Source: an uncultured bacterium
GTDB lineage: Bacteria > Patescibacteriota > Minisyncoccia > Phycocordibacterales > GWA1-40-21
Direction: 5' to 3'
Assembly: GCA_963804975.1 (NCBI GenBank)
Contig: CAWDSG010000002.1
Location: forward strand, 133,288-197,287
Length of the DNA stretch: 64,000 nucleotides
A program made the translations under genes and the position numbers. Shown one piece after another: positions 6,190-43,455 of this stretch. Each line of letters opens with the position of its first letter. Position 1 is the stretch's first letter. The notes beneath the pieces are model-generated. The model did no database searches. It saw nothing but the letters and a program-made list of their open reading frames with translations, and was not told where the DNA came from.

Positions 6190-6203
6190 CCAAAAAATCT
6201 CTC

Positions 6204-7027: not shown

Positions 7028-7061
7028 AAAACAAAATTTTTTATTGATAGAATAGGCCATA

Positions 7062-8767: not shown

Positions 8768-8804
8768 CTTAACTCAAGCTCTTCGGGGCTTTTAGAAAAA
8801 TAAG

Positions 8805-10957: not shown

Positions 10958-10972
10958 TCGATCAAAATCACC

Positions 10973-11164: not shown

Positions 11165-11181
11165 ATTGCAGCGTATACAAT

Positions 11182-11445: not shown

Positions 11446-11454
11446 TTAAAATTT

Positions 11455-12137: not shown

Positions 12138-12143
12138 AAAAAT

Positions 12144-12880: not shown

Positions 12881-13016
12881 ATTACTTAAAAATATCCGCG
12901 AAATGCGGGTATTTTTCTGTCCAAGTCGTATATTTAGAGATTAATCTTTCCGTTGACTTAAGCATAGTTTCTTGCTAATATTTCCAAACAAGCTTTTGGG
13001 AAGCTTTATTTAATTT

Positions 13017-13585: not shown

Positions 13586-13611
13586 CAATATAATTTTAAT
13601 AAAAGATTATC

Positions 13612-14145: not shown

Positions 14146-14151
14146 AATAAA

Positions 14152-14502
14152 ATGAAAAGATTAACCGATAAAAAAACAAAAATACAGATAAGGCACAACA
14201 GGATCAGGGCAAAAATCTCAGGAACAAAAGAGATGCCGAGATTTTCCGTTTACAAATCAAACACTTCTGTTTATGGCCAGATCATTGACGATACAAAAGG
14301 CGTGACGCTTGCCGCATATTCCGCCGACAAAGCTTCGGGAAAAGGCATGCTTCAAAAATCAAGGAACGCCGGTATGGAAATTGCCAAGCTTGCGATCGGG
14401 AAAGGCGTAAAAAAAGTAGTTTTTGACAGAGGCGGTTTCATTTACACGGGCAAAATAAAAGCTTTTGCCGATGGCGCAAGGGAAGGCGGGCTTAAATTTT
14501 AA
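14152..14502 (+). CDS. rplR: 50S ribosomal protein L18
   Basis: RIRAKISGTKEMPRFSVYKSNTSVYGQIIDD... Confidence 0.9.
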   Translation: MKRLTDKKTKIQIRHNRIRAKISGTKEMPRFSVYKSNTSVYGQIIDDTKGVTLAAYSADKASGKGMLQKSRNAGMEIAKLAIGKGVKKVVFDRGGFIYTGKIKAFADGAREGGLKF

Positions 14503-14507
14503 TAATT

Positions 14508-15179
14508 ATGGATACGGAAATCAAAAAAACAGACAATGCAAATGCAACAGCTCCTGTAAATGCGGAAGCGAAAATTTCGGTGGCGAAAAAACCATTTCCG
14601 GAAAGAAAACCTTTCCCGAGGAAAGGGCCGGAAGGCGAGCGGGTCAAGAATCGCAGAAGAAGTTCCGGTGGCAGACCAGAGAGAGTAAAGCCGGAATTTG
14701 ACCAGAAAATTTTGAATATAAGAAGAGTGACCAGAGTCACCAAAGGCGGGAAAAGGATGAATTTCAGCGTCTGTGTCGCTGTTGGCAATAAAAAGGGCTC
14801 TGTCGGAGTAGGCACGGGCAAAGCAAATGACACTTCGGCCGCGATAGACAAGGCCTACAGAAACGCAAAGAAAAATGTTATACAGCTGAATCTGACCAAA
14901 CAGATGTCCATTCCTCACGATGTCAGCGCAAAGTATTGCAGCGGAAAGGTCTCAATAATACCGGCTCCGGGGAGGGGAGTTTCTGCGGGAAGCGCTTTGA
15001 AAAATGTTATCGAACTTGCCGGCATCAATGATGTGACAGGAAAAATAATTTCTCCGTCAAAGAATAAATTAAATATTTCAAAAGCGGCTATTTTGGCTTT
15101 ATCCGCTTTTGACAAGAAAAAAATTGCCGCACCGCAAAAAACAGAAGCAAAACTAGCTGAAGAAAAAACCGAAAAATAA
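14508..15179 (+). CDS. rpsE: 30S ribosomal protein S5 (N- and C-terminal extensions)
   Basis: RRVTRVTKGGKRMNFSVCVAVGNKKGSVGVGTGKANDTSAAIDKAYRNAKKN. Confidence 0.93.
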   Translation: MDTEIKKTDNANATAPVNAEAKISVAKKPFPERKPFPRKGPEGERVKNRRRSSGGRPERVKPEFDQKILNIRRVTRVTKGGKRMNFSVCVAVGNKKGSVGVGTGKANDTSAAIDKAYRNAKKNVIQLNLTKQMSIPHDVSAKYCSGKVSIIPAPGRGVSAGSALKNVIELAGINDVTGKIISPSKNKLNISKAAILALSAFDKKKIAAPQKTEAKLAEEKTEK

Positions 15180-18584: not shown

Positions 18585-19269
18585 ATGAAGCGCAGAAGGA
18601 GCAGTATCATGGAGAAGCCAGCATTTGTAACTGCCGATGTAACGCAGGGAACGCTGAACGCTCTGGTGAAAAACATCATGAGCCAGACGGGAGCAACTGA
18701 TCCGAACGAAGCGGTCAGGCTCGTCAACTCGGGGACATGGGCTCTCAAGCAGGTCACCAAGTGGTACGGAAAAAGACGGCGTGATTTACTTCACCCTCGT
18801 TTCAAACGGAATGACGGGCAAGGAGTGGATCAAGCACTTTGAGGCGAAGGGAATCAACGTTGGCGACTATGCCAAACAACTCCTTTTGTCCAAAGCTTTC
18901 AAGCCGAGCAAAAAGGGCACGATCTACAATATAGCGGTCATCAAAGGGGAGTTTTTCTCCGATGACAACCGCATCACGTCAAACATTCGGGAAGAGGCAG
19001 ACAAACGCAAGTTTGGAAAGCCGAATGCCGAAGTTTCGCCCCTCACCCGAGACATGTTCACGAACGAGGAGATCAAGGCGATGGGTCTTTACTGGATCGT
19101 GCCGATGCACGAACCCATCAAGGATTCTGACGGCGATCCTAGCTTGCTCGGTGCGGGCCGTCGCGATGGCAGGCCGTGGCTCGGTGCGTATGACGGCAGG
19201 TCTGACAGCAGGTGGGGTCGTGAGGACGGGTTCGCTTTTTTGGCTCCGCAAGTTAGTTCTCAAAACTAA
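18585..19269 (+). CDS. DGR target (variable) protein; reading frame broken at an A5 run (18770-18774); C-terminal variable repeat
   Basis: ORFs 18585..18842 and 18781..19269 fuse (…VTKWYGK|DGVIYFTLVSNG…) if one A is removed from GGAAAAAGAC. GC content is higher than in flanking DNA. VR at 19126-19249. Confidence 0.7.
19126..19249 (+). other. DGR variable repeat (VR), 124 bp, at the 3' end of the target gene
   Basis: Identical to the TR except at 16 positions, all with A in the TR. The 3' end TTCGCTTTTTTGGCTCCGC is conserved (IMH-like). Confidence 0.9.
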
Positions 19270-19339: not shown

Positions 19340-19577
19340 ATGCTAAAATAAAAATGGTAGTAGGCGAATATGTGGGTGATCAAGGTTTCTCACTGCCGAA
19401 TCCAGTATCCATAAGTTGAGAGCGTTTGCGATTACGATTTCAAACGGAGGACTTATGTAGACTCTTCACAAAAAATGAAGATACTTGGTACAGAATATTA
19501 AGGTATTTAAAATACCACATCAGATACAACTCTGAGAGCATTCAAGGAGTGGTGACATAGGCGGTATTCTGTACATT

Positions 19578-19701
19578 TCTGACGGCGATCCTAACTTGCT
19601 CGGTACGAACCGTAACGATGACAGGCCGTGGCTCAATGCGTATAACGACAGGTCTGACAACAGGTGGAATCGTGAGAACGGGTTCGCTTTTTTGGCTCCG
19701 C
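19578..19701 (+). other. DGR template repeat (TR), 124 bp
   Basis: Same orientation as the VR. More A-rich, with AAC codons where the VR has AGC/GGC/CGC/GAC etc. Confidence 0.9.
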
Positions 19702-20108: not shown

Positions 20109-21125
20109 TTGTGTTGTAATATGTCTAAAATTAAATTTACTGACAGTTATGAGAATATCATTGAAATGGAAAATCTCCTAGAAGCGTGGAGAGAATTTGT
20201 TGTTGGCAAAAAATCCCGCAAGGATGTGGAAGAATTTCAAAGGTATTTAATGCAAAATATTATTTCCCTAAACAGGGAATTAGAAACCAAAACCTACAAA
20301 CATTCTCTGTACGAAGCGTTTAATATATCCGATCCGAAGCCAAGAAATATACACAAAGCAAAGGTAAGGGACAGATTATTGCACCACGCTTTATACAGAA
20401 AACTCTATCCATTTTTTGACAAAACTTTTACTTCCGACTCGTATTCTTGCAGATTGGGAAAGGGAACCCACAAAGCCATTGAAAGATTTCAGTCATTTGC
20501 GAACAAAGTATCAAAAAATAATACAAAAACGGTCTGGATTTTAAAATGCGATATACGAAAATTCTTTGCTTCCATAGACCAAGAAATTTTATTGAAAATA
20601 CTGAATGAATATATACCTGACAAAGATATTATCGCTGTTCTATCAGAAATCATTCACAGTTTTTGTTCCATTGAAAAAGGAAAAGGATTGCCTCTTGGAA
20701 ATCTGACATCACAGCTTCTAGTGAATATTTATATGAATAAGTTTGACCAGTTTGCAAAACACAAGCTAAAAGCAAAATATTATATAAGATACGCCGATGA
20801 CTTCGTTTTGTTATCGGAGGACAAAACGTGGCTTGAAAGTGCAATACAAAAAATCAGTGATTTTTTGTGGAACAAACTAACACTAAAATTACATCCAAAA
20901 AAACTGTTTCTGCAAACACTGGCTTCAGGCGTTGATTTTCTCGGCTGGGTTCACTTTCCAAATCATCGCGTTATACGAACTGTTACAAAAAGAAGAATGT
21001 TTAAAAATATCAAGCTGAAAAATGGAAAGATAGAAACAGTTCAATCTTATCTTGGTTTGCTATCTCATGGGAATGCTAAAAAATTGGCTGTAGAAATAGA
21101 TAATATTGTTAAAACTAATTTATGA
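20109..21125 (+). CDS. DGR reverse transcriptase (likely start at Met 20121, MSKIKF)
   Basis: RT motifs: PRNIHKAKVRDRLLHHAL (1/2), SYSCRLGKGTHKA, GLPLGNLTSQLLVNIYMNKFDQF (LGxxxSQ, DGR-RT hallmark), RYADDFVLL (YxDD), GVDFLGW. Confidence 0.85.
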   Translation: MCCNMSKIKFTDSYENIIEMENLLEAWREFVVGKKSRKDVEEFQRYLMQNIISLNRELETKTYKHSLYEAFNISDPKPRNIHKAKVRDRLLHHALYRKLYPFFDKTFTSDSYSCRLGKGTHKAIERFQSFANKVSKNNTKTVWILKCDIRKFFASIDQEILLKILNEYIPDKDIIAVLSEIIHSFCSIEKGKGLPLGNLTSQLLVNIYMNKFDQFAKHKLKAKYYIRYADDFVLLSEDKTWLESAIQKISDFLWNKLTLKLHPKKLFLQTLASGVDFLGWVHFPNHRVIRTVTKRRMFKNIKLKNGKIETVQSYLGLLSHGNAKKLAVEIDNIVKTNL

Positions 21126-21139: not shown

Positions 21140-23926
21140 ATGGCAGAGCAATTTGTACCTGAAAAAATAGAGCAGAAATTCAAGACCCCGGAGGAGGAAC
21201 TGCGGTTTTTGCGCGCAGAAGTTTTAAAGCACGAAAAAACAATTGCGGAGCGCAATGAGACGCCGCTTCGCGAGGAGATTATACGGAGCCAGCTTAAAGT
21301 TCATGCGCAGAGGAAAAAAGAGGATGTTTTGGAAAAAAATTATGCTCTGAAAAATAAAGAGGCGGAAGCCATTGTTTTGGATTTGTCGCCGGAGGAGCAC
21401 GATTATAAGATGGCCGAGCTCATTACGATTTTGCAGGAAAAAGGGGTTCTCAATACGCTTTCTGTCGTTGAAAAATTGAAAGATCCGCATTTGGAGGACG
21501 ATTTTCACAGATTCCTGATTCAATACATAAAATCCGGTTTTTCTGTCGGAAGAAATAACGAAAAAAGTCCAGTTTTGAAAGCGCTCAAAATGACGCTCTT
21601 TGAAGTTTCTCTTCCCGGAATCGCAAAAGATGATGCGCAAAAAGGAAAGCATCTGAAAGAATTGATATCAAAAATGGAGCAATTTTACGCAGGCATGCTT
21701 TCCGTGGAATCAAACGATAAAGATGGCGCGGGATATTTTTCACTTGAACTTACAAGCGCAAATCACTCAAGTGAAATAATTTTTTACATATCGGTTCCCG
21801 ACGGTAAAAAATCTTTGTTTGAAAAGCAGGCGCAATCTATTTTTCAGGATATAAAAATCACGGAGAAAAAAGACGATTATAATATTTTCAATGAGGAAGG
21901 GGATTATGTCGGATCATACGGAGAGTTTAACGAAAATCATATTTTTCCGCTGAAGACATACGAGCAATATGATTATGATCCGCTCAATGTCATCCTAAAC
22001 AGCTTTTCAAAGATTGATAAAGACGGCGAAGGTGCGGCAATACAGATAATCGTCAAGCCGGCGGAAAGCGAAAAAATGAGTTTTTACAAACGAGTGCTCA
22101 CAGAAATGGAAAAAGGCGCCAAGTTCAAAGATGCGCTTGAAAAGGCGGATTCTTCTTTTCTCGGCATTTTCAAGCAAGTCGGCAAGGATCTTATCGGCGC
22201 AAATGAAAAAAAAGACAAAAATGAAAAACCAGAAAATGCAGGCATTTCCAACCAAGTGCCCATTGAAAACATAAAAATAAAAACCGCAAGCCCGCTTGTA
22301 GATATTAACGTGCGCATTATGGCTTCAGGCGTCACCAGGGAAGAAGCCGGAGCAATACTTTCCGATATAGAATCAGCTTTCAATCAGTTTGAAAATACGA
22401 ATGGCAACAAATTTGTTTTTGACCGCATAGAGGGCAGGAATCTCCTGAAAATGGCGCGCGATTTTTCATTCAGGATTTTTGATGAAGAAAATGCCTTGGC
22501 GGTCAATTTGAAAGAGCTGACGACAGTGATGCATTTGCCCGAAGTTGATTTCGGCGAAGCATCGCAATTGAAACAGACAGCCGCAAATACCGCGCCGGCT
22601 CCGCTTGATTTGCCGATAAAAGGAATCCTTTTGGGAACAAATAAATTCAGGAGTAACGAGACCCCGATTCATATTACGGCAGAAGACCGCTTGAGGCATT
22701 TTTATATCATTGGACAGACCGGTACAGGCAAAACGACGCTTTTGAAAACCATGATCCGCCAGGATATCTTAAACGGCGAAGGCGTCTGCATGATTGATCC
22801 GCACGGTTCCGATATCCAGGAAGTGCTTTCTTTCGTTCCGCCTGAGAGATATCAGGATGTGATTTACTTTGACCCGAGCTACACGGCAAGGCCTTTCGGC
22901 TTAAATATGCTTGAATACGATGCAAGATTTCCGGAGCAAAAGACATTCGTGGTGAATGAAATGGTTTCTATTTTCAATAAGCTTTTTGATATGAAAACAA
23001 CCGGAGGCCCGATGTTTGAGCAGTATTTCAGGAATGCTACCAATCTTGTCCTGGATGATCCGGAATCAGGATGCACACTTCTTGATATTTCAAGAGTAAT
23101 GGCGGATAAAAATTTCAGGGATCTGAAGCTTTCAAAATGCAAGAATCCTCTCGTCGTCCAGTTTTGGAAAGATATCGCTCTTAAGGCCGGCGGAGAAGCA
23201 TCGCTTGCTAATATGGTCCCTTACATCACTTCAAAATTCGACGTATTCCTTTCAAATGAAATAATGCGCCCGATAGTATCCCAGGAAAAATCATCTTTTG
23301 ATTTCCGTGATATCATGGACAACAAGAAAATTCTTCTGGTGAATCTTGCAAAAGGGCGCCTTGGAGATATCAACTCAAACCTTATCGGCCTTATCATTGT
23401 GGGCAAGCTTTTGATGGCCGCTCTTTCAAGAACCGATTCGTTCGGAGAAAATTTTCCGCCATTTTATCTCTACATTGATGAATTCCAGAATATTACGACG
23501 GATTCCATTTCAACAATCCTTTCCGAAGCCAGAAAATACAAACTTGCGCTTACCATAGCCCATCAATTCATCGCCCAGCTTGAAGATAAAATCAAAAATG
23601 CGGTTTTTGGAAACGTCGGTTCAATGGCGGTATTCCGCGTAAGTTCCGAGGATGCCGAATATCTGGCAAAGCAATTTACGCCGGTATTCACTGCAAAAGA
23701 CCTGATGAATATTGATATCCATAGTTCGTATGTGAAATTGCTTGCAAACGGCAGGCCGGCAAAACCGTTTTCCATGGAAACAAATCTGCCTCCGCGAGGC
23801 GACAAGCTTCTGCTTGATAAAATCAAAGAATTGTCGTATCTTACTTACGGCAAGGATAGGAATGAGGTTGAAGAAGAAATCGCCAAAAAATTCAGGAAAT
23901 CTGAGCCAGTGATGCCAAAAATTTAG
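21140..23926 (+). CDS. TraD/TraG/VirD4-like (T4SS coupling-protein-type, FtsK-HerA superfamily) P-loop ATPase with ~500-aa N-terminal extension
   Basis: Walker A GQTGTGKTT, IDPHG, Walker B YLYIDEFQ, RKYKLALTIAHQ...QL, VFGNVGSMAVFRV (TraG-D_C-like). Paralogous to 45910..47793. Confidence 0.6.
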   Translation: MAEQFVPEKIEQKFKTPEEELRFLRAEVLKHEKTIAERNETPLREEIIRSQLKVHAQRKKEDVLEKNYALKNKEAEAIVLDLSPEEHDYKMAELITILQEKGVLNTLSVVEKLKDPHLEDDFHRFLIQYIKSGFSVGRNNEKSPVLKALKMTLFEVSLPGIAKDDAQKGKHLKELISKMEQFYAGMLSVESNDKDGAGYFSLELTSANHSSEIIFYISVPDGKKSLFEKQAQSIFQDIKITEKKDDYNIFNEEGDYVGSYGEFNENHIFPLKTYEQYDYDPLNVILNSFSKIDKDGEGAAIQIIVKPAESEKMSFYKRVLTEMEKGAKFKDALEKADSSFLGIFKQVGKDLIGANEKKDKNEKPENAGISNQVPIENIKIKTASPLVDINVRIMASGVTREEAGAILSDIESAFNQFENTNGNKFVFDRIEGRNLLKMARDFSFRIFDEENALAVNLKELTTVMHLPEVDFGEASQLKQTAANTAPAPLDLPIKGILLGTNKFRSNETPIHITAEDRLRHFYIIGQTGTGKTTLLKTMIRQDILNGEGVCMIDPHGSDIQEVLSFVPPERYQDVIYFDPSYTARPFGLNMLEYDARFPEQKTFVVNEMVSIFNKLFDMKTTGGPMFEQYFRNATNLVLDDPESGCTLLDISRVMADKNFRDLKLSKCKNPLVVQFWKDIALKAGGEASLANMVPYITSKFDVFLSNEIMRPIVSQEKSSFDFRDIMDNKKILLVNLAKGRLGDINSNLIGLIIVGKLLMAALSRTDSFGENFPPFYLYIDEFQNITTDSISTILSEARKYKLALTIAHQFIAQLEDKIKNAVFGNVGSMAVFRVSSEDAEYLAKQFTPVFTAKDLMNIDIHSSYVKLLANGRPAKPFSMETNLPPRGDKLLLDKIKELSYLTYGKDRNEVEEEIAKKFRKSEPVMPKI

Positions 23927-23932
23927 TAAATT

Positions 23933-24036
23933 AACGAGCAAAGCGAGTATAATTTTCTTAACCCCGTGAAATAAGAATTCAAAATTTCACAGGGTGATGA
24001 TTTTAAAAATTCGCTCTGCTCACAATAAAATCAATC
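23933..24036 (+). repeat. ERIC/MITE-like element copy D (short form), ends at the ndk ATG
   Basis: AACGAGCAAAGCGAGTATAATTTTCTTAACCCCGTGAAATAAGAATTCAAAATTTCACAGGGTGATGATTTTAAAAATTCGCTCTGCTCACAATAAAATCAATC + ATG. Confidence 0.7.
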
Positions 24037-24633
24037 ATGAAAAAAGAAAGAACTTTTGTAATGATAAAACCTGACGGAATCCAGAGGTCGCTTATCGGAG
24101 AAATTTTGGGCAGGTTTGAAAAAGTCGGATTGAAGCTTTGCGCCATGAAAATGATTGTTCCCACAAAAGAGATGGTGGAAAAACATTATACGCTTGATCC
24201 GACATGGCTCGAAAGAACAGGAACAAAAACAATTGCGAATTATGAAAAAAAAGGATTGAAACCTCCATTGGATAATCCGATAGATGTCGGCAATAGAACT
24301 CTCGGCATATTGATTAAATATTTGGCAAGCGGACCGGTAATAGCGATGGTCTGGCAAGGAGCGCACGCTGTTGAAATTACCAGAAAGCTTGTTGGCGGAA
24401 CTGAACCTTTGAGTTCAGATGTCGGAACGATACGCGGAGATTTTGTCTTGGATTCGTATCAAATATCCGATATTGACGGCAGGGCAATAAGAAATCTGAT
24501 ACACGCGTCCGGCTCTGTGGCGGAAGCCAAAGCGGAAATTGGTTTGTGGTTCAAGAATAATGAGGTTATAGATTATCGGCTTATCCAGGACGCCATACTT
24601 TATGATGTGGATTTGAAGGGAATTTTGGAGTAA
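24037..24633 (+). CDS. ndk: nucleoside diphosphate kinase (long form, C-terminal extension)
   Basis: ERTFVMIKPDGIQRSLIGEILGRFEKVGLKL...NLIHASGSVAEAKAEIGLWF (NxxHGSD-type motif). Confidence 0.88.
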   Translation: MKKERTFVMIKPDGIQRSLIGEILGRFEKVGLKLCAMKMIVPTKEMVEKHYTLDPTWLERTGTKTIANYEKKGLKPPLDNPIDVGNRTLGILIKYLASGPVIAMVWQGAHAVEITRKLVGGTEPLSSDVGTIRGDFVLDSYQISDIDGRAIRNLIHASGSVAEAKAEIGLWFKNNEVIDYRLIQDAILYDVDLKGILE

Positions 24634-24681: not shown

Positions 24682-25670
24682 TTTGTACTGGCGAAATTGC
24701 AAAAAAGCGGGAAATTTCCTTGACTTTATTCCGCTTTCCTATATACTTCTTGCTTACAGATATGTTGAACAAAAACTTAGCAAAAAAGCGGAAAGTATAG
24801 TCAGCATTTTTGATGTTGCCTCTACAGACCGCGAAAGCGGTTTTTTTGTCGGAAAGATTGAAACTTGTCAAATAAGATTCAGATTTGAACAATTCTCCTT
24901 CCGGAGGATGATTAAAATTTAAATCTTTATTCTGTCGCGATATCACCAATTTAATTTGGGTCTTTTATAGACATCGCAGACAGGCAGGTGAATCAATCAA
25001 TTTTTTTGAAGAGAATTGATATGATTTAAAAACTGTTATATGGAATTGATTTTATATAACAGGTTAGAACATGAATCGTGTTCGCCTTAAAAACGAATAC
25101 GAAGAATTGTGGTTTTTAAATTTCCTAATGGGAAATTTAAGGGCGTACGGTGGATGCCTTGACTCTAATAAGCGATGAAGGACGCAGCAATGCTTGCGAT
25201 AAGCTTCGGGGAGGTGCCTAGCAACCTTTGATCCGGAGATTTCCGAATGGGGAAACCCAGCCGATTTTATCGGCTATCTTATAAATTATATAAGTTGCTC
25301 ACCCAGGGAAGTAAAACATTTCAGTACCTGGAGGAATAGAAAACAATGCCGCGCAAGCGGTGAAATTTCCTTAGTAGCGGCGAGCGAAAAGGAAACAGCC
25401 CAAACCGATCACAAACTTTGTGCGTAAATTTATTTGCGCGTAAAGTTTGTAATCGGTGTAGTAAGGTGAAAACGTCATTTATTTATAGATGAAAAAAGTT
25501 ACAAAATATTTTGTTAGCAGAATCTGCTGGGAAGCAGAACCCCAGAGGGTAATAGTCCCGTAAGCGAAAATAAAATATCTTTTTTGTTTTGATTCTTGAG
25601 TACCTCAGGACACGAAAAGCTTGAGGGAACCTGCCGGAACTAACCGGTAAGGCTAAATATTGTTAGAGAT

Positions 25671-25707
<37 letters not shown>

Positions 25708-27362
25708 CAGCCCGTTAAGGGCGGTGAAATAGACCTGAAACCGTATGCCTACAAGGAGTCGGAGCGGGCAGCACAATGTCTGCAACAAAGCTTCGCATAT
25801 GTATTTTGAAAAGCACGATAAAAATTTTGCCGACGCAAAATTTTTTCTCTACTCAAAGAATTTTTTGCTAAAAATTCTTCTCCGTAAGGCATTTCAAAAC
25901 ACAATGCTTCGCTTTTTTGTTGTTGATAATGTGCTGTCCGTCACGGCGTGCCTATTGAAGAATGAGCCAACGAGTTGATGTATGAAGCAGGCTAAGTCCT
26001 TTGCAGGATGGAGCCATAGGGAAACCGAGTATTAATAGTGCGTTTGTTTTATACATCAGACCCGAAGCCAGAGCGAGCTTATCTTGAGCAGGGTGAACCT
26101 TTGAGAAATCAGAGGGGAGGCCCGAACTGTTTAGCCGTGCAATACTATCGGATGACTTGAGATAAGAAGTGAAAAGCTAATCGAGCCTGGTAATAGCTGG
26201 TTCTCTCCGAAATAGCTCTAGGGCTAGCGTCTAATGTACTTTCTGGGGGTAGAGCACTGGAAGGTCTTGACAGGTAGAAATACCGCAAGACCTATCAAAC
26301 TCCGAATACCAGAAATAAATTGTTAGGCAGTTAGACTGTGGAGGCTAAGCCCCGTGGTCAAAAGGGAAACAGCCCGCATCTATATTTAAGGTCCCTAAAT
26401 CTATGTTAAGTACACTTAAGGTGGTAATTTTTCTCAGACAGTAAGGAGGTTGGCTTAGAGGCAGCCATCCTTTAAAGATAGCGTAACAGCTCACTTACTA
26501 AGAGATTTTGCGCCGCAGATAATCGGGGTTAAACATAGTACCGAAACTTAGGAATGCGATAGTTTTCGAACTACTGTATTGGTAGGAGAGTATTCAACTC
26601 TGCAATGAAGGTAAAGGGGTGACCCATACTGGAGCGTGTTGAAGTAAGAATGTTGGCACAAGTAACCACAATGCGGGTGAGAACCCCGCACACCGAAAAA
26701 CCGAGGTTTCCTTTGCGATGACAATCAGCGAAGGGTTAGTCGGGCCTAAGGCAATGGCGAGAGCCGCAGCCGATGGACACATGGTTAATATTCCATGACT
26801 TTTATATGTTGCGATGGGAGGACGAAGTTTAGTATGGTACGCGCATTATTGGATTTGCGTTCGTGCCGTGATTGCGATTTGGAGGTAAATCCCCAAACTT
26901 CCTTAAATGGTATGCAAAAGCGGAGCGAAAATTCTGCGGTTCGCCGTGGAAAATGCATCAAAGCAAGCTTCCGAGAAAATTCTCTAAGCATAAACATATG
27001 AAAACCGTACCGCAAACCGACACAGGTGGTTAGCTCGAGTAGAGTAAGGTGAACGAGTGATAGATCTTCAAGGAACTCGGCAAAATAGCAGCCGTAAGTT
27101 AGCGATAAGGCTCGCCCTGTGGAATAAGGAATCAAAATAAATAAAGTAAAACATGAATATTATATTTATGTGCTTTTTGTTCAAGATTTGATTTTTTATT
27201 CCACGGGGTAGCATCAAAAGCATCACTGCCAACTGTTTATCAAAAACACAGCTCCCTGCGAAGTCGCAAGACGATGTATAGGGGGTGACACTTGACCAAT
27301 GCCAGAAGGTCAACCAACGACGTTGTTATCCGCAAGGGTAATGGTGATTGTTGTAAGCCCTG

Positions 27363-27413
<51 letters not shown>

Positions 27414-28061
27414 TGGTAAGTTCAGACGCGCTTGAATAGTGTAATGAGTGGTGAACTGTCTCGAAGATCAACTCGGTGAAAATGCAATACCGGTGAAGAT
27501 GCCGGTTACCTGCAGTTAGACGAAAAGACCCTAGAAGCTTTACTACAGCTTGATATTGAGTATATGTTTTAGATGCGTAGCGTAGACGGGAGGATTTGAA
27601 GTTTTTCTTTCGGGGGAAGATGGATCCGCAAGTGAAATACCGTTCTTTTTGAATATATATTCTAATCTTTGAGGCAAAAACTCATAGAAACATTATCTGG
27701 CAGGTAGTTTTAGTGGGGCGCTATCCTCCCAAAAAGTAACGGAGGAGTCTATTAAGGTCGGCTAGGCGCGAATGGAAACCGTGCCGATAGCATATTGGCA
27801 AATGCCGGCTTAACTGCAAGACGTAAGTGTCGAGCAGGTGCGAAAGCAGAGCAAAGTGATCCGACGGTCCGTGTTAGACGCGGCCGGAGCTCATCTGACA
27901 AAAGCTACTCTAGGGATAACAGGCTAGTTCCGCCTAAGAGTTCATATCGACGGCGGAGTTCGGCACCTCGATGTCGGCTCATCTTATCCTGGGGGTGGAG
28001 AAGCTCCCAAGGGTATGGCTGTTCGCCATTTAAAAAGATACGCGAGCTGGGTTCAAACCGT

Positions 28062-28462
28062 TAAGAAGACAAATTTTGTCTTTTTGACAGTTTGAATCCC
28101 ATTGAAGAAGTTATGGAACAAGAAATTTTTTCGTTTAGAAACTCAAAGACAAGATGAGTAATTTTGTCGTGAGTATAAAAGAAAGGAGAAGAAAAGACAC
28201 TCCAGTCAAATAAAAATTGACGGGGCAAGCAATCAAATCACGGCGGTCCAGCACCATTTTTTAAAATAGTGCTGAATGAAGCTGGTTTATATCGGTAAAA
28301 TCTTTTGAGATTTTATCCCGAGTGAAATCGAGGGATGAAATTTGTGAGACAATACCGAGGGAAAATTAATTTATTTTAATTGCCCGTAGAGACTAAATAC
28401 CAGCAGCGCGCGAAAGCGTGTGAAGCTATAGTCCAATGCAGTGAGCAATCACTGATATCATG
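28062..28462 (+). other. group I intron 1 in 23S rRNA (ORF-less, ~401 nt), at the site equivalent to E. coli ~2593
   Basis: Exon ...GGGTTCAAACCGT | intron | CGTGAGACAGGTTGG... restores the conserved GAACGUCGUGAGACAG. Intron carries a P7-like CGTAGAGACTAAATACC and ends in G. Confidence 0.7.
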
Positions 28463-28512: not shown

Positions 28513-29309
28513 ATTTGACTTTAGTAAATTTTGCTACTTCAGAAAGTAATTTCTGATGACAAAGTGGCTAATAACGGTGAAATCTTGAATTTTTCAAAGT
28601 CCGTTGATAACTATTATTTGATTAGTCCTCTGATAATAGTACAATAGTATCTATGATACTTGAGGACCAGAAAAAACAAGACAATACCGTGGGAAGTCGA
28701 TCTAAAATTGATTTAGCTTATATAGCAGGTTTTTTAGATGGCGATGGAAGCATAATGCTCCAAGTTAAGAAAAGAAAGGATGGCAAGAATAAATTCAGGT
28801 TTATGGCTACCATTTGTTTCTATCAAGATACTCGTCATGAAAAAGATCTGTATTGGATAAGAAAAATTTTGGGAATCGGATATATCATCAAAAGAAACGA
28901 TGGTATGACCGAACTCAGAATAAACGGATATTCTCAGATAAAGAATATCTTGAAAGCACTAATATCTTTCATTAAATTTAAAAAAATTCAATGCAAGGCG
29001 CTGTTAAAAGCGTGTGAAATATTATCCAGTATAAAATATAAGAAATTAAATCAAAAACATCTCAAAACAATCGTTAATTTTGTTTTGGAAATACAGAGTG
29101 AAAACTATGCAACCAAAAGAAAAAAGACAAAAAATGAGCTGTTTGAAATTTTAGGTTTGACCCCGTAACGACTCTCCGGCTTAGGTCGGAGGACTTGCAT
29201 AATGGTGAATCGTTTCTTTGAAAACGACAGCTTATGCTTGTAATACGCCAACACCCTAAAACATAATATGTTCGGGTGAAGATATAGTCTGCACTCCTCG
29301 TGAGAGGGG
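28513..29309 (+). other. group I intron 2 in 23S rRNA (boundaries ±20 nt), encoding a LAGLIDADG endonuclease
   Basis: Interrupts the conserved ...GAACTGAGGGG|GGCTGCTCCTAGTACGAGAGGACC region. 3' part AAGATATAGTCTGCACTCCTC resembles the Tetrahymena P9 region (AAGAUAUAGUCGGACCUCUCC). Exon resumes GTGCGACGAGAGGACC. Confidence 0.6.
28653..29168 (+). CDS. LAGLIDADG homing endonuclease (single-motif, I-CreI-like), intron-encoded
   Basis: [14 protein letters not shown] motif. 171 aa. Lies inside the 23S intron. Confidence 0.85.
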
Positions 29310-35978: not shown

Positions 35979-37364
35979 ATGATTAAAAGAAGGTTCTGGG
36001 CTGTGGTGCTTATAATTATCTCATTTTTTGTGGGATATTTTGTTTATTCCAGCCAAAAAAACCCAGCTTCAAATTTCAGATTCAAACTCGGCCTTGACTT
36101 GAACGGCGGGACGGAGCTTGTCTACAAACCTGATTTGTCTAAAGCTTCCTCAACTATTTCTGATGTCCAAAGTTCCATGAATGTCCTTCGAGACGTGATT
36201 GAAAGAAGGGTAAATATTTTCGGGGTTTCCGAGCCGGTTGTCCGCGTTGAGCAAGTCGGTTTTACCGGCTCAAACAATAATGAACAACTGACAGTTGACC
36301 TTCCGGGGATTACCAATATTGATCAGGCGGTTGCTATGATCGGAGCTACGCCAACTTTGGATTTCAGATTGCTTTCTACGAGTTCGGAAAAACTGACAGG
36401 CGATGAGCTTAATGCAAAAATCGCATCAAGCGGAATGAGCAGTGTTTTTGAAGTAACCGGTTTGACCGGAGAATATCTCAAAACTTCATCGCTCCAATTC
36501 GACCAGACATCAGGCGAGCCGATGGTTTCTCTCCAATTCAATTCCAAAGGGAGCGATTTATTCGCGAGCATTACAAAAAACAATATCGGCAGAAAACTTG
36601 CAATTTTTCTTGATGGGCAATTAGAATCCATGCCGAACATCAAAGAGGAAATTGACGGTGGAAATGCAGTCATCTCCGGCGGATTTACCGGAAGCGCTGG
36701 TATAAAAGAAGCAAGAAAGCTTGTTGACGATTTGAATCTCGGCGCTCTGCCTATTCCGATACAGCTTATTTCAACGCAGACAATCGGCGCATCGCTCGGC
36801 CATGACGCGGTGCAGGCCTCCACAAAAGCCGGCATAATCGCATTTATTGTCATTGCGCTTTTCTTGATTTTGGTTTACAGATTGCCTGGTTTGCTTGCGG
36901 TTATTGCGCTTTGTATTTATACAGCTCTTACTTTGGCGATTTTTAAAATCATTCCTGTCACGCTTACGGCCGCCGGCATCGCCGCATTCATACTTAGCGT
37001 CGGTATGGCGGTGGATGCGAACATTCTTATTTTTGAACGTATGAAAGAAGAATTCAGAAGGGGAAGGGAAATCGGCGACGCGGTTTCGGAAGGTTTCCAC
37101 CGGGCGTGGACTTCAATCCGCGACTCAAACACTTCAAGTATGATTACCGCCGTTATTCTTTATATGTTCTCATCCACATCGGTCGTCAAAGGTTTTGCGC
37201 TCGTCTTTTTCATCGGTGTTGCGGTTTCAATGTTCACAGCCATCACCGCTTCGCGAACTTTGCTTTTGGCCATAAAGCACGACCATGCTGGAGGATTTCT
37301 TAAATGGCTTTTTGGCGGACAGATTAAAAATCCGGAAAATACGGAATTAAAATCAAACAAATAA
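35979..37364 (+). CDS. secD: protein translocase subunit SecD
   Basis: LGLDLNGGTELVYKPD...; C-terminal 6-TM; followed by secF. Confidence 0.88.
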   Translation: MIKRRFWAVVLIIISFFVGYFVYSSQKNPASNFRFKLGLDLNGGTELVYKPDLSKASSTISDVQSSMNVLRDVIERRVNIFGVSEPVVRVEQVGFTGSNNNEQLTVDLPGITNIDQAVAMIGATPTLDFRLLSTSSEKLTGDELNAKIASSGMSSVFEVTGLTGEYLKTSSLQFDQTSGEPMVSLQFNSKGSDLFASITKNNIGRKLAIFLDGQLESMPNIKEEIDGGNAVISGGFTGSAGIKEARKLVDDLNLGALPIPIQLISTQTIGASLGHDAVQASTKAGIIAFIVIALFLILVYRLPGLLAVIALCIYTALTLAIFKIIPVTLTAAGIAAFILSVGMAVDANILIFERMKEEFRRGREIGDAVSEGFHRAWTSIRDSNTSSMITAVILYMFSSTSVVKGFALVFFIGVAVSMFTAITASRTLLLAIKHDHAGGFLKWLFGGQIKNPENTELKSNK

Positions 37365-37365: not shown

Positions 37366-38316
37366 ATGTTTATCGTAAAAAACAGAAAAATATTTTATAC
37401 ATTCTCAATCTTGCTTGTCGCCGCGTCAATCGCAGCGCTTTGCATCTGGGGCCTTTCTTACAGCATAGATTTTACGGGCGGTTCATCGGTGCAATTCCAA
37501 TATAAAAATGTCAGGCCGGATATAAGCGTGGTGAAATCTGAAATTGATTCGCTCACATTTGATCCGACCATCAAAGGCACGTATTCTCTCATTCCAAACG
37601 GCACCAATAGCTATGTACTAAATCTGAGGACGATTACGGATTCGGAGCGCTCTTTGCTCACAGGAGTCCTTTCTTCAGACGCATCAAACACGCCTCAAAT
37701 ATCGCAATTCAGCTCCATCGGTCCTGTTCTCGGCCAGCAAGCCGCTTCAAAATCTATAATGGCGATTATTTTGGTGATTATCTGCATCGTGCTTTTCATA
37801 ACATTCGCTTTCAGAAAAGTTTCGGAACCGGTCTCTTCGTGGAAATACGGCATTGTCTCAATCATCGCGCTCTGCCACGATATGATTATTCCGACAGGCG
37901 TATTCATCGTCCTCAATCATTTCTTCCATGGATATGAGATTGATACGCTTTTTGTGACCGCAATCCTCGTCATTCTCGGATTTTCAATCCACGACACAAT
38001 CGTCGTTTTTGACAGAGTCAGGGAAAATCTCCGCGTCAATTCGGGAAATAAAATTAAGAAAACATTTGAAGAAACTGTCGGCGCCTCCATTTCGCAGACA
38101 TTCATAAGGTCCATCAACACATCTCTTACCACGCTTCTCGCCATTCTTGTCGTCTATCTTGCCGGCCCTGTCGCCACCAAGCATTTCGCCCTCGCCCTTC
38201 TTGTCGGTATTTTCTTCGGAACGTATTCGTCAATATTCATCGGCTCAAACTTGCTCGTCACCCTTGAAAAAGCGCAGCAAAAAAAACTTGAAGCCAAAAA
38301 AGCAGGGAAGAAATAA
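37366..38316 (+). CDS. secF: protein translocase subunit SecF
   Basis: SIDFTGGSSVQFQY...; 6 TM; 2-bp gap after secD. Confidence 0.88.
   Translation: MFIVKNRKIFYTFSILLVAASIAALCIWGLSYSIDFTGGSSVQFQYKNVRPDISVVKSEIDSLTFDPTIKGTYSLIPNGTNSYVLNLRTITDSERSLLTGVLSSDASNTPQISQFSSIGPVLGQQAASKSIMAIILVIICIVLFITFAFRKVSEPVSSWKYGIVSIIALCHDMIIPTGVFIVLNHFFHGYEIDTLFVTAILVILGFSIHDTIVVFDRVRENLRVNSGNKIKKTFEETVGASISQTFIRSINTSLTTLLAILVVYLAGPVATKHFALALLVGIFFGTYSSIFIGSNLLVTLEKAQQKKLEAKKAGKK
38281..38316 (+). repeat. 36-bp direct repeat copy 1 (3' end of secF)
   Basis: AAAAAACTTGAAGCCAAAAAAGCAGGGAAGAAATAA. Identical copy at 39215-39250. Confidence 0.9.
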
Positions 38317-38332
38317 TTATCCACCTAACCAT

Positions 38333-38361
38333 TTGACTTATGTATATACAAAGTATATACT
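38333..38361 (+). promoter_or_regulatory. promoter TTGACT-17-TATACT with tandem palindromic GTATATAC boxes (putative MazE operator)
   Basis: ttgacttatgtatatacaaagtatatact. Confidence 0.5.
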
Positions 38362-38367
38362 TTTATT

Positions 38368-38631
38368 ATGACAACAAAAATACAAAGATGGGGAAATAGT
38401 TTTGGCATCCGCTTGCCAAAAGCGGTATTTGAATCAGGACAATTTTCCGAAGGCATGCTTGTGGACTTGAACCAAAAAGGTCCGGAAATTATCTTGCGCG
38501 CAGTAAAACCAAAAAAAGCGGCGAAATCGAAATACCCATCCCTTAAAGAAATTATGAAAGGCATTGATGCTTCCGTTTTTCATCCAGAGACTGATTGGGG
38601 ACCGGACGTCGGTAAAGAAATACTAGAATGA
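38368..38631 (+). CDS. mazE: MazE/AbrB/SpoVT-family antitoxin
   Basis: MTTKIQRWGNSFGIRLPKAVFE...; 4-nt overlap (ATGA) with the toxin gene. Confidence 0.8.
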   Translation: MTTKIQRWGNSFGIRLPKAVFESGQFSEGMLVDLNQKGPEIILRAVKPKKAAKSKYPSLKEIMKGIDASVFHPETDWGPDVGKEILE

Positions 38632-38963
38632 ATATAAATCCGCCGAAACGAGGTGATATTTTTGTGTGCGATTTTTCTCCTACCATGGGACATGAGCAAA
38701 GCGGAATAAGACCAGCTATTGTTTTGTCTGATTCTGATTTTAATGCAAAAACTGATCTGATTCTTGCTTGCCCGATTACCACTAGCGAACGCGGATATTT
38801 TTTTGAAGTAAAAGTGAAGACAGAAAAAACAAAAGGTGTTATTTTGACTCATCATATACGAACGATTGATTTTGTGGCGAGGCACGGTAAAGTAGTCGAT
38901 AAGGTAGATAAAAAAACGCTGAAAGAAGTGATAGAGAAAATTAAAGTTTTGATTGAGAGATAA
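38628..38963 (+). CDS. mazF: MazF/PemK-family endoribonuclease toxin
   Basis: RGDIFVCDFSPTMGHEQSGIRPAIVLSDSDFN...LACPITT. Confidence 0.8.
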   Translation: MNINPPKRGDIFVCDFSPTMGHEQSGIRPAIVLSDSDFNAKTDLILACPITTSERGYFFEVKVKTEKTKGVILTHHIRTIDFVARHGKVVDKVDKKTLKEVIEKIKVLIER

Positions 38964-38964
38964 T

Positions 38965-39216
38965 ATGAAAATAGATTACGACAAAATCGCCGATGCTATG
39001 TATATATACTTGGCAAAAGGCGCAATGTGAGGTAAAATTAAAAAGACCATCGAGGTCGGCAATTGTTTGCTTGTTGATGTGGATAAAGACGGAAATATAC
39101 TCGGTATTGAGATACTTTTTGTTTCTTCGTGGCTCAACACGAAAAATATTGAAAAAGATTTCAAAAAAGGTTTGCTTCCCGTCAGCATCATTTCCAAATT
39201 GCCAGCGATGGCGTAA
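38965..39216 (+). pseudogene. DUF2283-family small protein gene interrupted by an in-frame TGA (39028-39030)
   Basis: MKIDYDKIADAMYIYLAKGAM*GKIKKTIEVGNCLLVDVDKDGNILGIEILFVSS... (DUF2283-like MKIxYDxxxDxLYIxL...DxDxxGNIVGIEIL). Confidence 0.55.
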
Positions 39217-39250
39217 AAAACTTGAAGCCAAAAAAGCAGGGAAGAAATAA
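39215..39250 (+). repeat. 36-bp direct repeat copy 2
   Basis: AAAAAACTTGAAGCCAAAAAAGCAGGGAAGAAATAA, followed by AAT-ATG of the next gene. Confidence 0.9.
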
Positions 39251-39253: not shown

Positions 39254-39787
39254 ATGAAAAAATTAATCAATATTTTGTTTGTTCGCAGACCAGAGATAGA
39301 AAATAAATGGTGGAACCGTTTATTTAATGTTTTTCTTGTTCTTACGGGAATTTTTGTATTTATTTTGGCTTTAGGTCAAGTTATTACCAGTTATCATAAT
39401 AGTTGGTTTAGTTATTATAATCCGACAGCACTTAGTTTAGAGTCAAACAATCTAACCACAAATCTTTCATTTAGTGATTTGAAAGAAAATATTGCCGCTC
39501 TTCAAAAGAACAATGTAAGTTCTTCAAATATTCAGAGTTATATAAATAATTATGTTTCAGATGGAAATGGAGGATATGTTTTAAAAAATCAAACCGCTAT
39601 ACCGAATACCACATCAACACAAAACACTCAACGGAGTAATAGTTTTATAAACGATCTAGGAAATATATTAATTGATATTGCAATGTGGATTATTATTCCA
39701 ATTTTTGCAGTATTACTCTGGATTATATTTTTGAGTTCTATTGTTTACAGAACTATTTTATATATAATTTTTGGTAAGAAAAAATAA
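39254..39787 (+). CDS. hypothetical membrane protein (2 TM, Asn/Ser-rich loop)
   Basis: 177-aa ORF; TM helices at the N- and C-termini. Confidence 0.55.
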   Translation: MKKLINILFVRRPEIENKWWNRLFNVFLVLTGIFVFILALGQVITSYHNSWFSYYNPTALSLESNNLTTNLSFSDLKENIAALQKNNVSSSNIQSYINNYVSDGNGGYVLKNQTAIPNTTSTQNTQRSNSFINDLGNILIDIAMWIIIPIFAVLLWIIFLSSIVYRTILYIIFGKKK

Positions 39788-40574
39788 AGTAAAATAGTTC
39801 AATCTTGATATTTAATAAAACTGTGGATAGCCATTTTGTCAAATGAGATGATTATATAAAGGTCTTTTAACAAAAAATAAGTTTTATAGCTTTTATATTA
39901 TTGATTTCTTAAAGTTAGTGATTTACCATAAATGTAACAAAAAACCTCCCCTGAGTTCGGAACTAGAAGAGGTTTTTGTTATCTAGTTTTTAACTAGATA
40001 AGATATCAGTTTGCAAAGGTCTCGTTATCTTTTTTAAAGGTTTCGAGACTTTTGTTTTGCTATTATTTTTTGTGGCTGGAAATGGGTGTGCCCATGTTCC
40101 ATTGTGATTTTGACACCACATTAAACCATCTGAAAAATAACAAAAAGCAAATTTACTCATAAGTTTTTTATTTTTTTTATATTCTTTTGACTAGAAAGAA
40201 CTAGATGTTGTGACCGACCACACTTATTAAAATCATCCCTGCAATACCTAACATTCTACTGATGGCATGATTATAATAATTTTCATCCAACAAAAAACTC
40301 CTATACTGAATCGGAGTATCAAGGAACACTCATTTTTTTAGAAAGAATGTGCCTCAACTTGTAGGAGTATAAAGGTTTTATTCTTGATACTCCGATTCAA
40401 AACGGGAGTTCTGTTTTTTCCAATATGGGGATTTGTACTTTACTAATTAAATGAATGTCAACCAATAACACTCCTACCTTTATATTTTAGCATAAATGTT
40501 TTGAAGAAAGCAAAATCTATAATTGTGGATAACTCAAGGCAAAATTCTCCATATTTTTCAACCCTTTTTTCTCC

Positions 40575-40602
40575 TTGACTCCAATTCAAATCCGAGTATA
40601 AT
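40575..40602 (+). promoter_or_regulatory. near-consensus sigma70 promoter TTGACT-16-TATAAT (candidate 16S rRNA promoter)
   Basis: ttgactccaattcaaatccgagtataat, ~360 bp upstream of the 16S 5' end. Confidence 0.5.
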
Positions 40603-40959
40603 AACCAAGCTGTATATTAAATAAGAACCTTTCAAAAAAGAATAGGTTTTCCGAGTAAATCCCGCAGCTTGCGGGTTTTGCATTCAGAAAAATTTAATAA
40701 GCAGTGTTCCTTAACAACAAAATAGTACAAGATTTAAGAAATGCTTTACCTTTTTAAACATGAGAGGTATTGCATAATGTGCGAGTCTAGATCAAATCGT
40801 TCAAGTAAGAACGACTCAGAGTCTGCTCCGTTGTTACGTTTAATAATGCGTAAAAAATGGCAGGCCTCTAAAAAATCAGGAAATAAAAAAGAAAAAACTA
40901 AATATTGTTTTTTATTTTGTTCCGTTTCCGAAAAGAAATGCATTTATGCATTTTATTTT

Positions 40960-42492
<1,533 letters not shown>

Positions 42493-42661
42493 TCGAACAC
42501 GATTCGACCTCGGTCGGATCTGATCGGTCGGTTTTCAATGCCTCAATTGAGCATTGAAGGGTTTTGTGTAAACCTAAAATACACTATACAGCGGGAAAGA
42601 CCGCAAAAATCCGCCAGGATGCGGATAAGAAACGGAACAAAATAAAGAACAATATTAAAAA

Positions 42662-43222: not shown

Positions 43223-43304
43223 GGGCATGTGGTGGAACTGGTATACACGTACGCTTCAGAAGCGTATTCCGAAAGGATTGAGAGTTCGAGTCTCTCCATG
43301 CCCA
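43223..43304 (+). tRNA. tRNA-Leu (anticodon CAG), class II long variable arm
   Basis: Acceptor GGGCATG/CATGCCC. Anticodon stem TACGC/GCGTA with loop TTCAGAA. Variable arm TTCCGAAAGGATT. T-arm GAGAGTTCGAGTCTCTC. Confidence 0.8.
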
Positions 43305-43310
43305 CAAAAT
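43287..43310 (+). repeat. 24-bp direct repeat copy 1 (tRNA-Leu 3' end + 6 nt)
   Basis: CGAGTCTCTCCATGCCCACAAAAT. Identical copy at 43432-43455. Confidence 0.85.
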
Positions 43311-43431: not shown

Positions 43432-43455
43432 CGAGTCTCTCCATGCCCACAAAAT
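43432..43455 (+). repeat. 24-bp direct repeat copy 2
   Basis: CGAGTCTCTCCATGCCCACAAAAT. Confidence 0.85.

Follow-up and report, generated by a model that had tools for sequence, protein, structure and literature searches.

Chromosomal type II toxin-antitoxin (TA) operons of the mazEF kind are antitoxin-first bicistrons with overlapping stop and start codons and palindromes over the promoter, at which MazE, alone or together with MazF, represses its own operon. Sites where accessory genes accumulate between conserved core genes are known as cargo hotspots, a general pangenome concept, and cis-mobilizable elements (CIMEs), the integrase-less derivatives of integrative elements flanked by attachment (att) sites, have been described for the ICESt1/ICESt3 family. 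A duplicated homologous segment flanking an insert is also the product of a single crossover by a circularised molecule, and illegitimate joints typically carry 3-10 bp of microhomology (PMC3240628). Here, we analysed a 64,000-nucleotide stretch (64 kb; hereafter, the window) of contig CAWDSG010000002.1 from an uncultured member of the Patescibacteriota, in which a mazEF operon and a disrupted DUF2283 gene lie between secF and the 16S rRNA gene, enclosed by two identical 36-bp copies of the secF terminus. Comparison with related loci leads us to read the 36-bp repeat as the probable trace of a single recent recombination event within a cargo hotspot, and not as a signature of movement of the TA module.

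The window contains exactly two copies of the 36-mer AAAAAACTTGAAGCCAAAAAAGCAGGGAAGAAATAA, one at the end of secF (R1) and the other at a spacing of 934 bp (R2), with 898 bp enclosed. The original prediction, made from the sequence without database searches, had placed a perfect duplication at 38281-38316 and 39215-39250, and it is exact: none of 100 shuffled sequences yielded any match, and two further repeat scans recovered the same pair. The identity ends sharply on both sides (A versus T on the left, T versus A on the right). The right edge coincides with the secF stop codon, with a different sequence following it in each relative, and R2 has at its left edge an A6 run that overlaps the TAA of the DUF2283 open reading frame (ORF). 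R1 encodes VTLEKAQQKKLEAKKAGKK and a stop codon (translation KKLEAKKAGKK-stop). Since secF ends in KKLAAKKAGKK-stop and KKLEAKRAGKK-stop at two related loci (L009 and L010, respectively; loci and contigs compared with the window carry L numbers), the repeat is native secF sequence and, as had been proposed, reconstitutes the secF C-terminus. R2 is followed by AAT and then by the ATG of a 177-aa ORF (ORF177). A secF stop codon, 3 nt and a small membrane ORF form a layout common to R2-ORF177 and to secF-ORF73 of L009, and this likeness in spacing suggests that R2-ORF177 keeps the original secF-ORF177 junction. With R for the repeat, the filled junctions as assembled read secF-R-TTATCCACC... on the left and ...GATGGCGT-R-AATATG on the right. 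A hypothetical empty site would read secF-R-AATATGAAAAAATTA, and a hypothetical circle junction ...CCAGCGATGGCGT-R-TTATCCACCTAACC. Neither dyad symmetry nor a fold is present in the 36-mer (z = +0.9), and no secondary structure was found in the repeat or its junctions.

An independent short-read assembly (Logan ERR10755942) contains the same DNA: contig L001 (958 bp) consists of the insert and 30 nt of the repeat at each end, at 100% identity, and the neighbouring contig L020 begins 30 nt into R2. We infer that these contig ends reflect a break of the de Bruijn graph at the repeat, with k = 31 deduced from the 30-nt overlaps; thus, the sequence is confirmed, whereas the order of the segments is left unconfirmed by these contigs. 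That both break exactly at the repeat is what speaks for an assembly artefact, in which the assembly would have joined to the chromosome, at the 36-mer, either a free circle of 934 bp or a cassette that only some of the population carries. We consider such an artefact extremely improbable: any read is much longer than the repeat and would span it, the source contig measures 606 kb, the arrangement is coherent, with secF intact and the spacing to ORF177 kept, and mazEF occupies the same locus in other lineages.

The surroundings of the repeat pair are conserved. The local order of glycosyltransferase, sugar transferase, secD, secF, 16S, tRNA-Ile and tRNA-Leu genes is kept in relatives, and 16S lies downstream of secF also in L004, L006, L009, L021 and L026. 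Among named SecF homologs, the nearest carry the label Patescibacteria or Candidatus Paceibacterota; SecF of the closest relatives is 83-86% identical to that of the window, and a scan of a genome collection with SecF provided one usable relative, at 72% identity. The secF-16S spacer of the window measures 2,637 bp, and homology to relatives resumes only at ~40542 (L009) or ~40690-40705 (L004 and L006), so that ~2.2 kb (38317 to ~40541), and not merely 934 bp, are lineage-specific. This stretch comprises the TA segment, R2, ORF177 and ~750 bp of AT-rich non-coding DNA. None of the five closest secF loci (L004/5, L006-8, L009, L010 and L002) has mazEF after secF. L004 and L006 (SecF 83-84%, 16S 91-93% identity) are cargo-free, with secF, a terminator hairpin, ~400-460 bp and 16S. 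In L009 (SecF 83%), secF is followed by 3 nt, ORF73 (a 73-aa membrane ORF), a reverse-strand DUF3800 gene, the promoter and 16S, with positions 2558-2815 being 85.6% identical to the 16S leader of the window, and L010 (SecF 86%) has a different small ORF after secF. The cargo at the spacer differs in every lineage examined, with no cargo gene shared by any two of L009, L010 and the window. ORF177 has neither a Pfam or PADLOC match nor a homolog in the spacers of relatives, and exact look-up returned it solely from the source assembly and the same Logan run. No cargo protein matched PADLOC, and no remnants of the relatives' cargo genes were found in the AT-rich block.

On this comparative evidence, the secF-16S spacer is, in this clade, a small cargo hotspot with conserved flanks, namely, the 3' end of secF on one side and the rRNA promoter with 16S on the other; a hotspot of this description was not found for Patescibacteria in our literature searches. 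Like other pangenome hotspots, it combines conserved flanks with small accessory genes particular to each lineage (TA, orphan, defence-like DUF3800), but it differs from them in its tiny scale (0.4-2.6 kb), in its position directly upstream of an rRNA promoter and in the ~0.6-Mb streamlined genomes that harbour it. The lack of the cassette in relatives with 83-86% identical SecF indicates that the region was rearranged by insertion. A comparison of regions downstream of secF, which the original prediction had proposed as a check, therefore bore it out in that the five closest loci are without mazEF, but other cargo was encountered there and no strain-level empty site with a single copy of the repeat.

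With a probability of roughly one half, we favour an origin of the repeat by homology-driven recombination between alternative cargo versions of the spacer, that is, through a Campbell-type single crossover or a one-sided join. The starting versions would be secF followed by mazEF-DUF2283 and secF followed by ORF177 and the sequence beyond it. By one route, a small circular intermediate carrying one cargo and the secF terminus would enter through a single crossover within the 36 bp (Campbell-type); by the other, a linear fragment would undergo homologous exchange on one side (secF or the 16S leader) and form an illegitimate joint at the A-run on the other. Both routes fit the junctions, because the repeat ends on the right at the secF stop, where the versions cease to be homologous, and the A6 run at the left edge would be the microhomology. 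The A6 run overlaps the stop of the complete DUF2283 ORF, and the extent of the microhomology depends on the sequence of the donor. The resemblance to Campbell-type or homology-facilitated illegitimate recombination (HFIR; PMC3240628) lies in the direct host duplication flanking the insert, in the homopolymer microhomology joint and in the dispensability of any enzyme of the element; the duplicated host segment also ends where the homology between alleles ends, at the secF stop. The two cases differ in that the homology is 36 bp here versus 109-950 bp there and in that classical HFIR gives deletions, and the process at our locus is read from the structure. Whether the TA block or the block of R2 and ORF177 arrived last, the final structure is the same. 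Consequently, the predicted acquisition of a TA cassette by insertion stands insofar as the closest relatives are without the cassette, but the repeat does not identify the TA block as the newcomer, and import of R2 with ORF177 and the AT-rich block, beside a cassette already in place, fits equally well.

Several considerations weigh against this origin. The donor allele, the empty site and the circular junction were not found in any near-identical strain: exact look-up of SecF returned nothing, those of MazF and ORF177 returned only the same Logan run, and a metagenome scan with a codon-degenerate 36-mer gave five loci, none similar to the window (chance matches). The layout in which mazEF directly follows secF, as the donor allele requires, is seen in L021-24, which are not near-identical strains. 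With 36 bp of homology, RecA-dependent exchange is close to its lower limit. The recombinase survey covers 64 kb of a ~606-kb genome, so that a recombinase acting in trans is possible elsewhere, and duplicated tRNA 3' ends together with a serine recombinase in L004 show that integrase-type events take place in the neighbourhood. Furthermore, the three edge duplications that we detected (in the window, L026 and L009) differ in detail and could have unrelated causes. Finally, one-sided illegitimate recombination usually gives an insertion with a deletion and not a duplication (PMC3240628). Mosaicism of secF was also sought in a sliding-window identity plot, in which the signal was too weak to use.

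If the cassette were mobile in its own right, its relatives should tell, and four related loci bear on this point. L011 and the window represent the same site filled and empty, respectively: both have a PKD/LTD gene, a TGGTATAAT promoter, a ~30-aa ORF and rpsS, and in L011 mazEF is wedged directly after the PKD stop codon (TGA immediately followed by TGTCCACA) with no flanking duplication. There is likewise no repeat around mazEF in L021. In L026, a second fragment of the secF terminus lies 65 nt past the real stop and before ORF65, so that the two termini bracket a 65-nt hairpin and not mazEF; the fragment matches the L021-type terminus at 28 of 33 nt (E 2e-6) versus 20 of 26 nt for the terminus of L026 itself and is, thus, a displaced or imported allele rather than a decayed self-copy. 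L009 contains a 31-nt copy (30/31 identical) of the -35 region of the rRNA promoter (1641-1671 versus 2581-2611), 940 bp upstream of the real promoter, and this pair flanks the reverse-strand DUF3800 gene. Since the real promoter copy and its left flank are common to L009 and the window, the upstream copy is the extra one and no insertion is cleanly bracketed. Collectively, nothing marks the cassette as self-mobile, and the repeat is a property of the locus and not of the cassette. The suggestion of a mobile TA module, to be sought elsewhere, thus fared well in that the mazEF lineage does occur in other contexts, but not with regard to machinery, phage or plasmid copies, none of which was found, or to the insertion in L011, which is devoid of a duplication.

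These loci also bear on integration at an att site. A 934-bp non-autonomous unit, CIME-like or mobilisable, could have been inserted into the 3' end of secF by a tyrosine or serine recombinase acting in trans, the 36 bp being the identity block of attL and attR. A direct repeat by which the 3' end of a conserved gene is restored is the classic layout of integrative elements, shared with CIMEs, as is, for the latter, a cargo lacking a recombinase; preference for a site would explain why mazEF is found at the same locus in three lineages, and duplicated tRNA 3' ends are present 4-5 kb downstream in the window and also in L006, with a large serine recombinase abutting tRNA-Leu in L004. We nevertheless judge this explanation unlikely, if by no means far-fetched. 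The 898-bp segment encodes no transposase, integrase or recombinase, its genes being mazE, mazF and the disrupted DUF2283 gene, and, among the ORF translations of the 64-kb window, reading recognised no recombinase save for a weak RAYT-like Y1 ORF (6281-7027) 31 kb away. At a mere 0.9 kb, the unit is far smaller than CIMEs, and its repeat has no core/arm structure or dyad symmetry. Related copies of mazEF lack the repeat (L021), secF termini elsewhere enclose a hairpin instead (L026), so that there is no common att core, the repeat in L009 is an unrelated sequence, and the insertion in L011, compared with the empty site, shows no repeat. Integron cassettes provide no better match, given that the cassette has its own promoter, the repeat is unstructured, with nothing resembling attC or dif, and no intI-like ORF was seen in the window.

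Transposition-like insertion by an enzyme making a long stagger, with target-site duplications of ~30-36 bp around compact promoter-to-stop cassettes, would account for the similar geometry of the repeat pairs in the window (36 nt, spacing 934) and in L009 (31 nt, spacing 940) despite their different cargo, as well as for the fact that the two repeats are unrelated in sequence, as target duplications should be. Yet the two inserts share no ends or inverted repeats, the sequence to the left of the second repeat copy in L009 is ancestral, being common to the window, so that the insertion is not cleanly bracketed, the duplicate in L026 is a different allele and not a self-copy, and the module arrived in L011 and L021 without a duplication. 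The cassette also has neither the transposase nor the terminal inverted repeats of transposons and insertion sequences, and its 36-bp repeat compares with a typical duplication of 2-15 bp. We know of no transposase family that makes duplications of 30-36 bp, the nearest analogy being the duplication of repeats by Cas1-Cas2, and consider this explanation very improbable. A candidate for terminal inverted repeats of a 2.2-kb element, TTATCCAC (38317 on the plus strand, 40524 on the minus strand), was examined and found unsupported: the right copy falls short of the boundary by ~10 nt on the inner side, coincidental V-D-K codons account for several other copies, and there is a genome-wide enrichment of the motif.

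To place the TA module itself, we considered its homologs. The MazF lineage comprises 25 homologs, the best of which is 70% identical, seen so far only in Patescibacteria metagenome contigs; no relatives of the cassette were found on viral contigs or in phage and plasmid records. The module occurs in four contexts besides that of the window: between a PKD/LTD protein gene and the rpsS operon (L011-14); after secD, secF and 84 nt, and before ORF142, the promoter and 16S (L021-25); after secF and ORF65, and before the promoter and 16S (L026-29); and between ORF140 and rplC-rplD-rplW (L030-36). MazF is 62-68% identical in all pairs, and MazF and MazE together span 60-75%. The MazF proteins encoded at the same secF-16S locus (L021-25 and L026-29) are 62-64% identical to that of the window, and the closest (68.5-70%) sits at a different locus. 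Divergence of the hosts extends over 54-86% identity in SecF and 86.5-92.6% in 16S, and it is not tracked by MazF, which is 64% identical where SecF is at 54%, yet 62% identical where 16S is at 92.5%; moreover, hosts as close as L026, such as L004 and L006, are without the module. Simple vertical inheritance, therefore, does not fit, and the mazEF module looks horizontally mobile on an evolutionary time scale, as far as these sequence comparisons reach.

The same data bear on the possibility that secF-mazEF-16S is an ancient, vertically inherited arrangement, from which relatives lost the cassette and in which the repeat was created by a later local event, such as insertion of R2 and ORF177, or was kept identical by gene conversion. 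The presence of mazEF at one locus in three lineages spanning 86.5-92.5% 16S identity is in line with this, as are the composition of the ORF177 block, an outlier at 25-30% GC versus ~38% in the cassette, and the DUF2283 gene, which had time for disruption. The original prediction had reasoned that relatives with the same arrangement but non-identical flanks would point to an ancient event rather than to an insertion, and part of this was indeed observed, in that L021-25 and L026-29 have mazEF at the locus without a bracketing repeat. However, at least four independent losses would be required (L004, L006, L009 and L010, and L002), MazF divergence is out of step with that of the hosts, and the closest MazF is encoded at another locus, all of which makes an ancient residence quite unlikely. 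With respect to how the repeat formed, it overlaps with recombination between cargo versions and differs only in which of the two blocks is older.

In all five lineages, the module precedes a co-oriented ribosomal operon (16S in three; rpsS or rplC in two). Cleavage of rRNA precursors by MazF toxins has been described (PMC12541390). A compact recombinase-less module, extending from the DnaA-box-like motif at its left end over promoter and operator to mazE and mazF, that prefers sites directly upstream of co-oriented ribosomal operons, be it through an unrecognised targeting mechanism or through a coupling between MazF and ribosome synthesis, strikes us as decidedly improbable. A claim of targeting would need more than five lineages, of which three share one locus.

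The cassette appears to be an intact type II TA operon with its own promoter, followed by a broken DUF2283 gene, and the gene assignments of the original prediction (secF, mazE, mazF with a 4-nt overlap, and DUF2283) are all correct by Pfam. It has the gene order, the overlapping stop and start codons (ATGA, 38628-38631) and the promoter palindromes of chromosomal MazEF systems, as well as a full-length PemK/MazF toxin (PF02452; PDB 7bye, 1ub4 and 5ck9) and an antitoxin with a DNA-binding domain of the AbrB/SpoVT/MazE type. MazF matches the NCBIfam endoribonuclease MazF model (E 1e-28) and aligns over its full length to the solved structures 7bye_B and 1ub4, with the GHEQxGxRPA and CPIT segments kept; it differs from the typical members in scoring below the NCBIfam equivalog cut-off (99.6 versus 120 bits) and, thus, belongs to a divergent lineage. 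We regard the cassette, known here from sequence alone, as a divergent but ordinary member of the MazEF family. MazE is 67-75% identical to its counterparts in L011, L021 and L026, and the pairing of overlapping mazE and mazF recurs in four other lineages. The predicted promoter with tandem palindromes was recovered as TTGACT-17-TATACT with two copies of GTATATAC (38342-38349 and 38353-38360) over the spacer and the -10 element, which form a putative operator; GTATATACAAAGTATATAC of this operator recurs unchanged in the L011 and L026 groups and nearly so in L021 and L030. The position of the palindromes over the -10 element fits autorepression, and the promoter looks autoregulated. Alignment of the five upstream regions further shows, ~10 nt upstream of the -35 element, a DnaA-box-like motif semi-conserved in four of the five lineages (TTATCCACC in the window, TGTCCACA in L011, TTATTCACA in L021 and TTACCCACA in L026); in the window and in L011, no nucleotide separates this motif from the stop codon of the preceding gene. 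Downstream, homology among the lineages stops at the mazF stop codon, and the DUF2283 gene is therefore a window-specific addition.

That the DUF2283 gene is a pseudogene, as suggested originally, was confirmed, with its start corrected to 38965 (not 38966). The ORF is broken by a 12-nt insertion (39019-39030) with an in-frame TGA at its end (39028-39030), and the inserted codons, GAM and stop, are missing from all eight aligned DUF2283 homologs. The C-terminus is complete, ending in IISKLPAMA as in homologs P0146 and P0147, which places the right junction exactly at its stop codon and the A-run. Reading of the TGA as a recoded codon (genetic code 25) was ruled out, as TGA terminates mazE and rpsC and lies within the insertion that the homologs lack. 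Direct repeats allow deletion by recombination, and addiction to a toxin penalises loss of the cassette. By analogy, addiction, countering repeat-driven deletion, may help explain the persistence of a TA operon in a recombination-prone spacer. The features of the locus are collected in Table 1.

Table 1 Features of the secF-16S region, in window coordinates
Feature	Position	Strand	Description
secD	35979..37364	+	Pfam SecD_1st, SecDF_P1_head, SecD_SecF_C; syntenic in L002, L004, L006, L021
secF, 316 aa	37366..38316	+	PF02355, E 6.8e-48; conserved left flank of the variable spacer
R1 (repeat copy 1)	38281..38316	+	Last 11 codons and stop of secF; 36/36 match to 39215-39250
Segment between repeats	38317..39214	+	898 bp with mazEF and disrupted DUF2283 gene; 100% identical in Logan contig L001
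TTATCCACC, DnaA-box-like motif	38317..38325	+	Start of the insert; leftmost part of the conserved module
mazEF promoter	38333..38361	+	TTGACT 38333-38338, 17 nt, TATACT 38356-38361; promoter scan 10/12
mazE antitoxin, 87 aa	38368..38631	+	PF04014, 25.1 bits versus cut-off 24.7; weak NCBIfam MazE/ChpS matches
mazF toxin, 111 aa, intact	38628..38963	+	PF02452, E 1.4e-26, profile positions 1-108 of 109
DUF2283 gene, disrupted	38965..39216	+	PF10049, E 1.2e-14; stop TAA formed by T39214 and the first two A of R2
R2 (repeat copy 2)	39215..39250	+	Non-coding; repeats the secF terminus; ORF177 starts after a further 3 nt
ORF177	39254..39787	+	Orphan; predicted membrane protein; ~27% GC
AT-rich non-coding block	39788..40541	.	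No counterpart in relatives; contains long hairpin 40289-40417 and inverted TTATCCACA 40524-40532
16S leader with rRNA promoter	40542..40952	+	TTGACT-16-TATAAT 40575-40602, best promoter match in the region, 11/12; right flank
16S rRNA gene	40953..42493	+	Rfam RF00177, 1317 bits

Several further features of the locus and the window were recorded. Upstream of the rRNA promoter lies a long imperfect hairpin (40280-40425) with 35-nt arms (dG -23 kcal/mol, z -4.5; none of 200 shuffles as stable), for which Rfam matches were limited to chance-level microRNA precursor families. Downstream of the 16S gene, the last 24 nt of tRNA-Leu(CAG) and 5 nt beyond recur exactly 145 bp downstream (43287-43310 and 43432-43455); L006 has a second copy of the last 30 nt of tRNA-Ile, 102 bp further on (9820-9849 and 9922-9951), which an apparent decayed tRNA 5' half precedes, and in L004, a gene for a 564-aa serine recombinase (9840-11534) abuts tRNA-Leu. 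These tRNA duplications and the serine recombinase look like scars or sites of integrative elements beside the rRNA locus.

The rRNA genes of the window are unlinked (23S at 25127-28105, 5S at 29690, 16S at 40953-42493). An ORF of the LAGLIDADG type (28653-29168) is located between 23S and 5S, and in L021 the 16S gene exceeds the length of the model by ~160 nt and contains a GIY-YIG ORF (6495-6752); both ORFs are probably homing endonuclease genes in or beside rRNA genes. The window also encodes a type IV pilin-like ORF and many glycosyltransferases.

Among the ribosomal protein genes, a family of repeats of ~120-190 bp (8787-8926, 10362-10543, 12130-12313 and 23919-24039) extends from the upstream stop codon to the ATG of rpsS, rplP, rplE and ndk, respectively. 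The centre is variable and is enclosed by two conserved halves that pair as a CCCTGTGAAAT/ATTTCACAGGG stem, and a 67-nt stretch is identical in two copies. The family may serve these genes as a common promoter or processing element, or it may be a miniature mobile element in the ribosomal-protein operon. Upstream of rpsS, a ~30-aa hydrophobic ORF (MFDSTFFKFLI...) with a TGGTATAAT promoter is present in both the window (8600-8730) and L011 (8390-8503) and probably represents an unannotated small membrane protein or a leader peptide. The cumulative GC skew of the window is lowest at ~5-6 kb, and a cluster of six DnaA-box-like 9-mers falls at 5382-7009, making ~5300-7100 a candidate replication origin. 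The same region contains a 248-aa ORF (6281-7027) with a weak match, below cut-off, to REP-associated tyrosine transposases (E 1.6e-8), and hairpin repeats CCCCGAGGTTAAACCTCGGGG and AATTATCCAC at 6204, 6478 (inside the 248-aa ORF) and 6985. In addition, a reverse-transcriptase-like ORF (20109-21125) lies near a pair of 125-nt repeats that are 88% identical (19125-19249 and 19577-19701). In L011, an RVT_1 gene (13717-14799) stands beside a repeat pair (12809-12949 and 13548-13688) overlapping a gene with an Lcl_C domain, an arrangement which looks like a diversity-generating retroelement with its template and variable repeats.

Taken by itself, the cassette is one more horizontally shuffled TA operon beside a recombination scar, and the locus is a caution that a direct repeat alone is no proof of a mobile cassette. 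In a broader context, the spacer between secF and the 16S promoter is a miniature cargo hotspot in streamlined genomes, where duplicated flank edges record the addition of cargo, and the recurrent position of mazEF upstream of ribosomal operons offers a lead as to which sites in Patescibacteria genomes tolerate TA modules or benefit from them.

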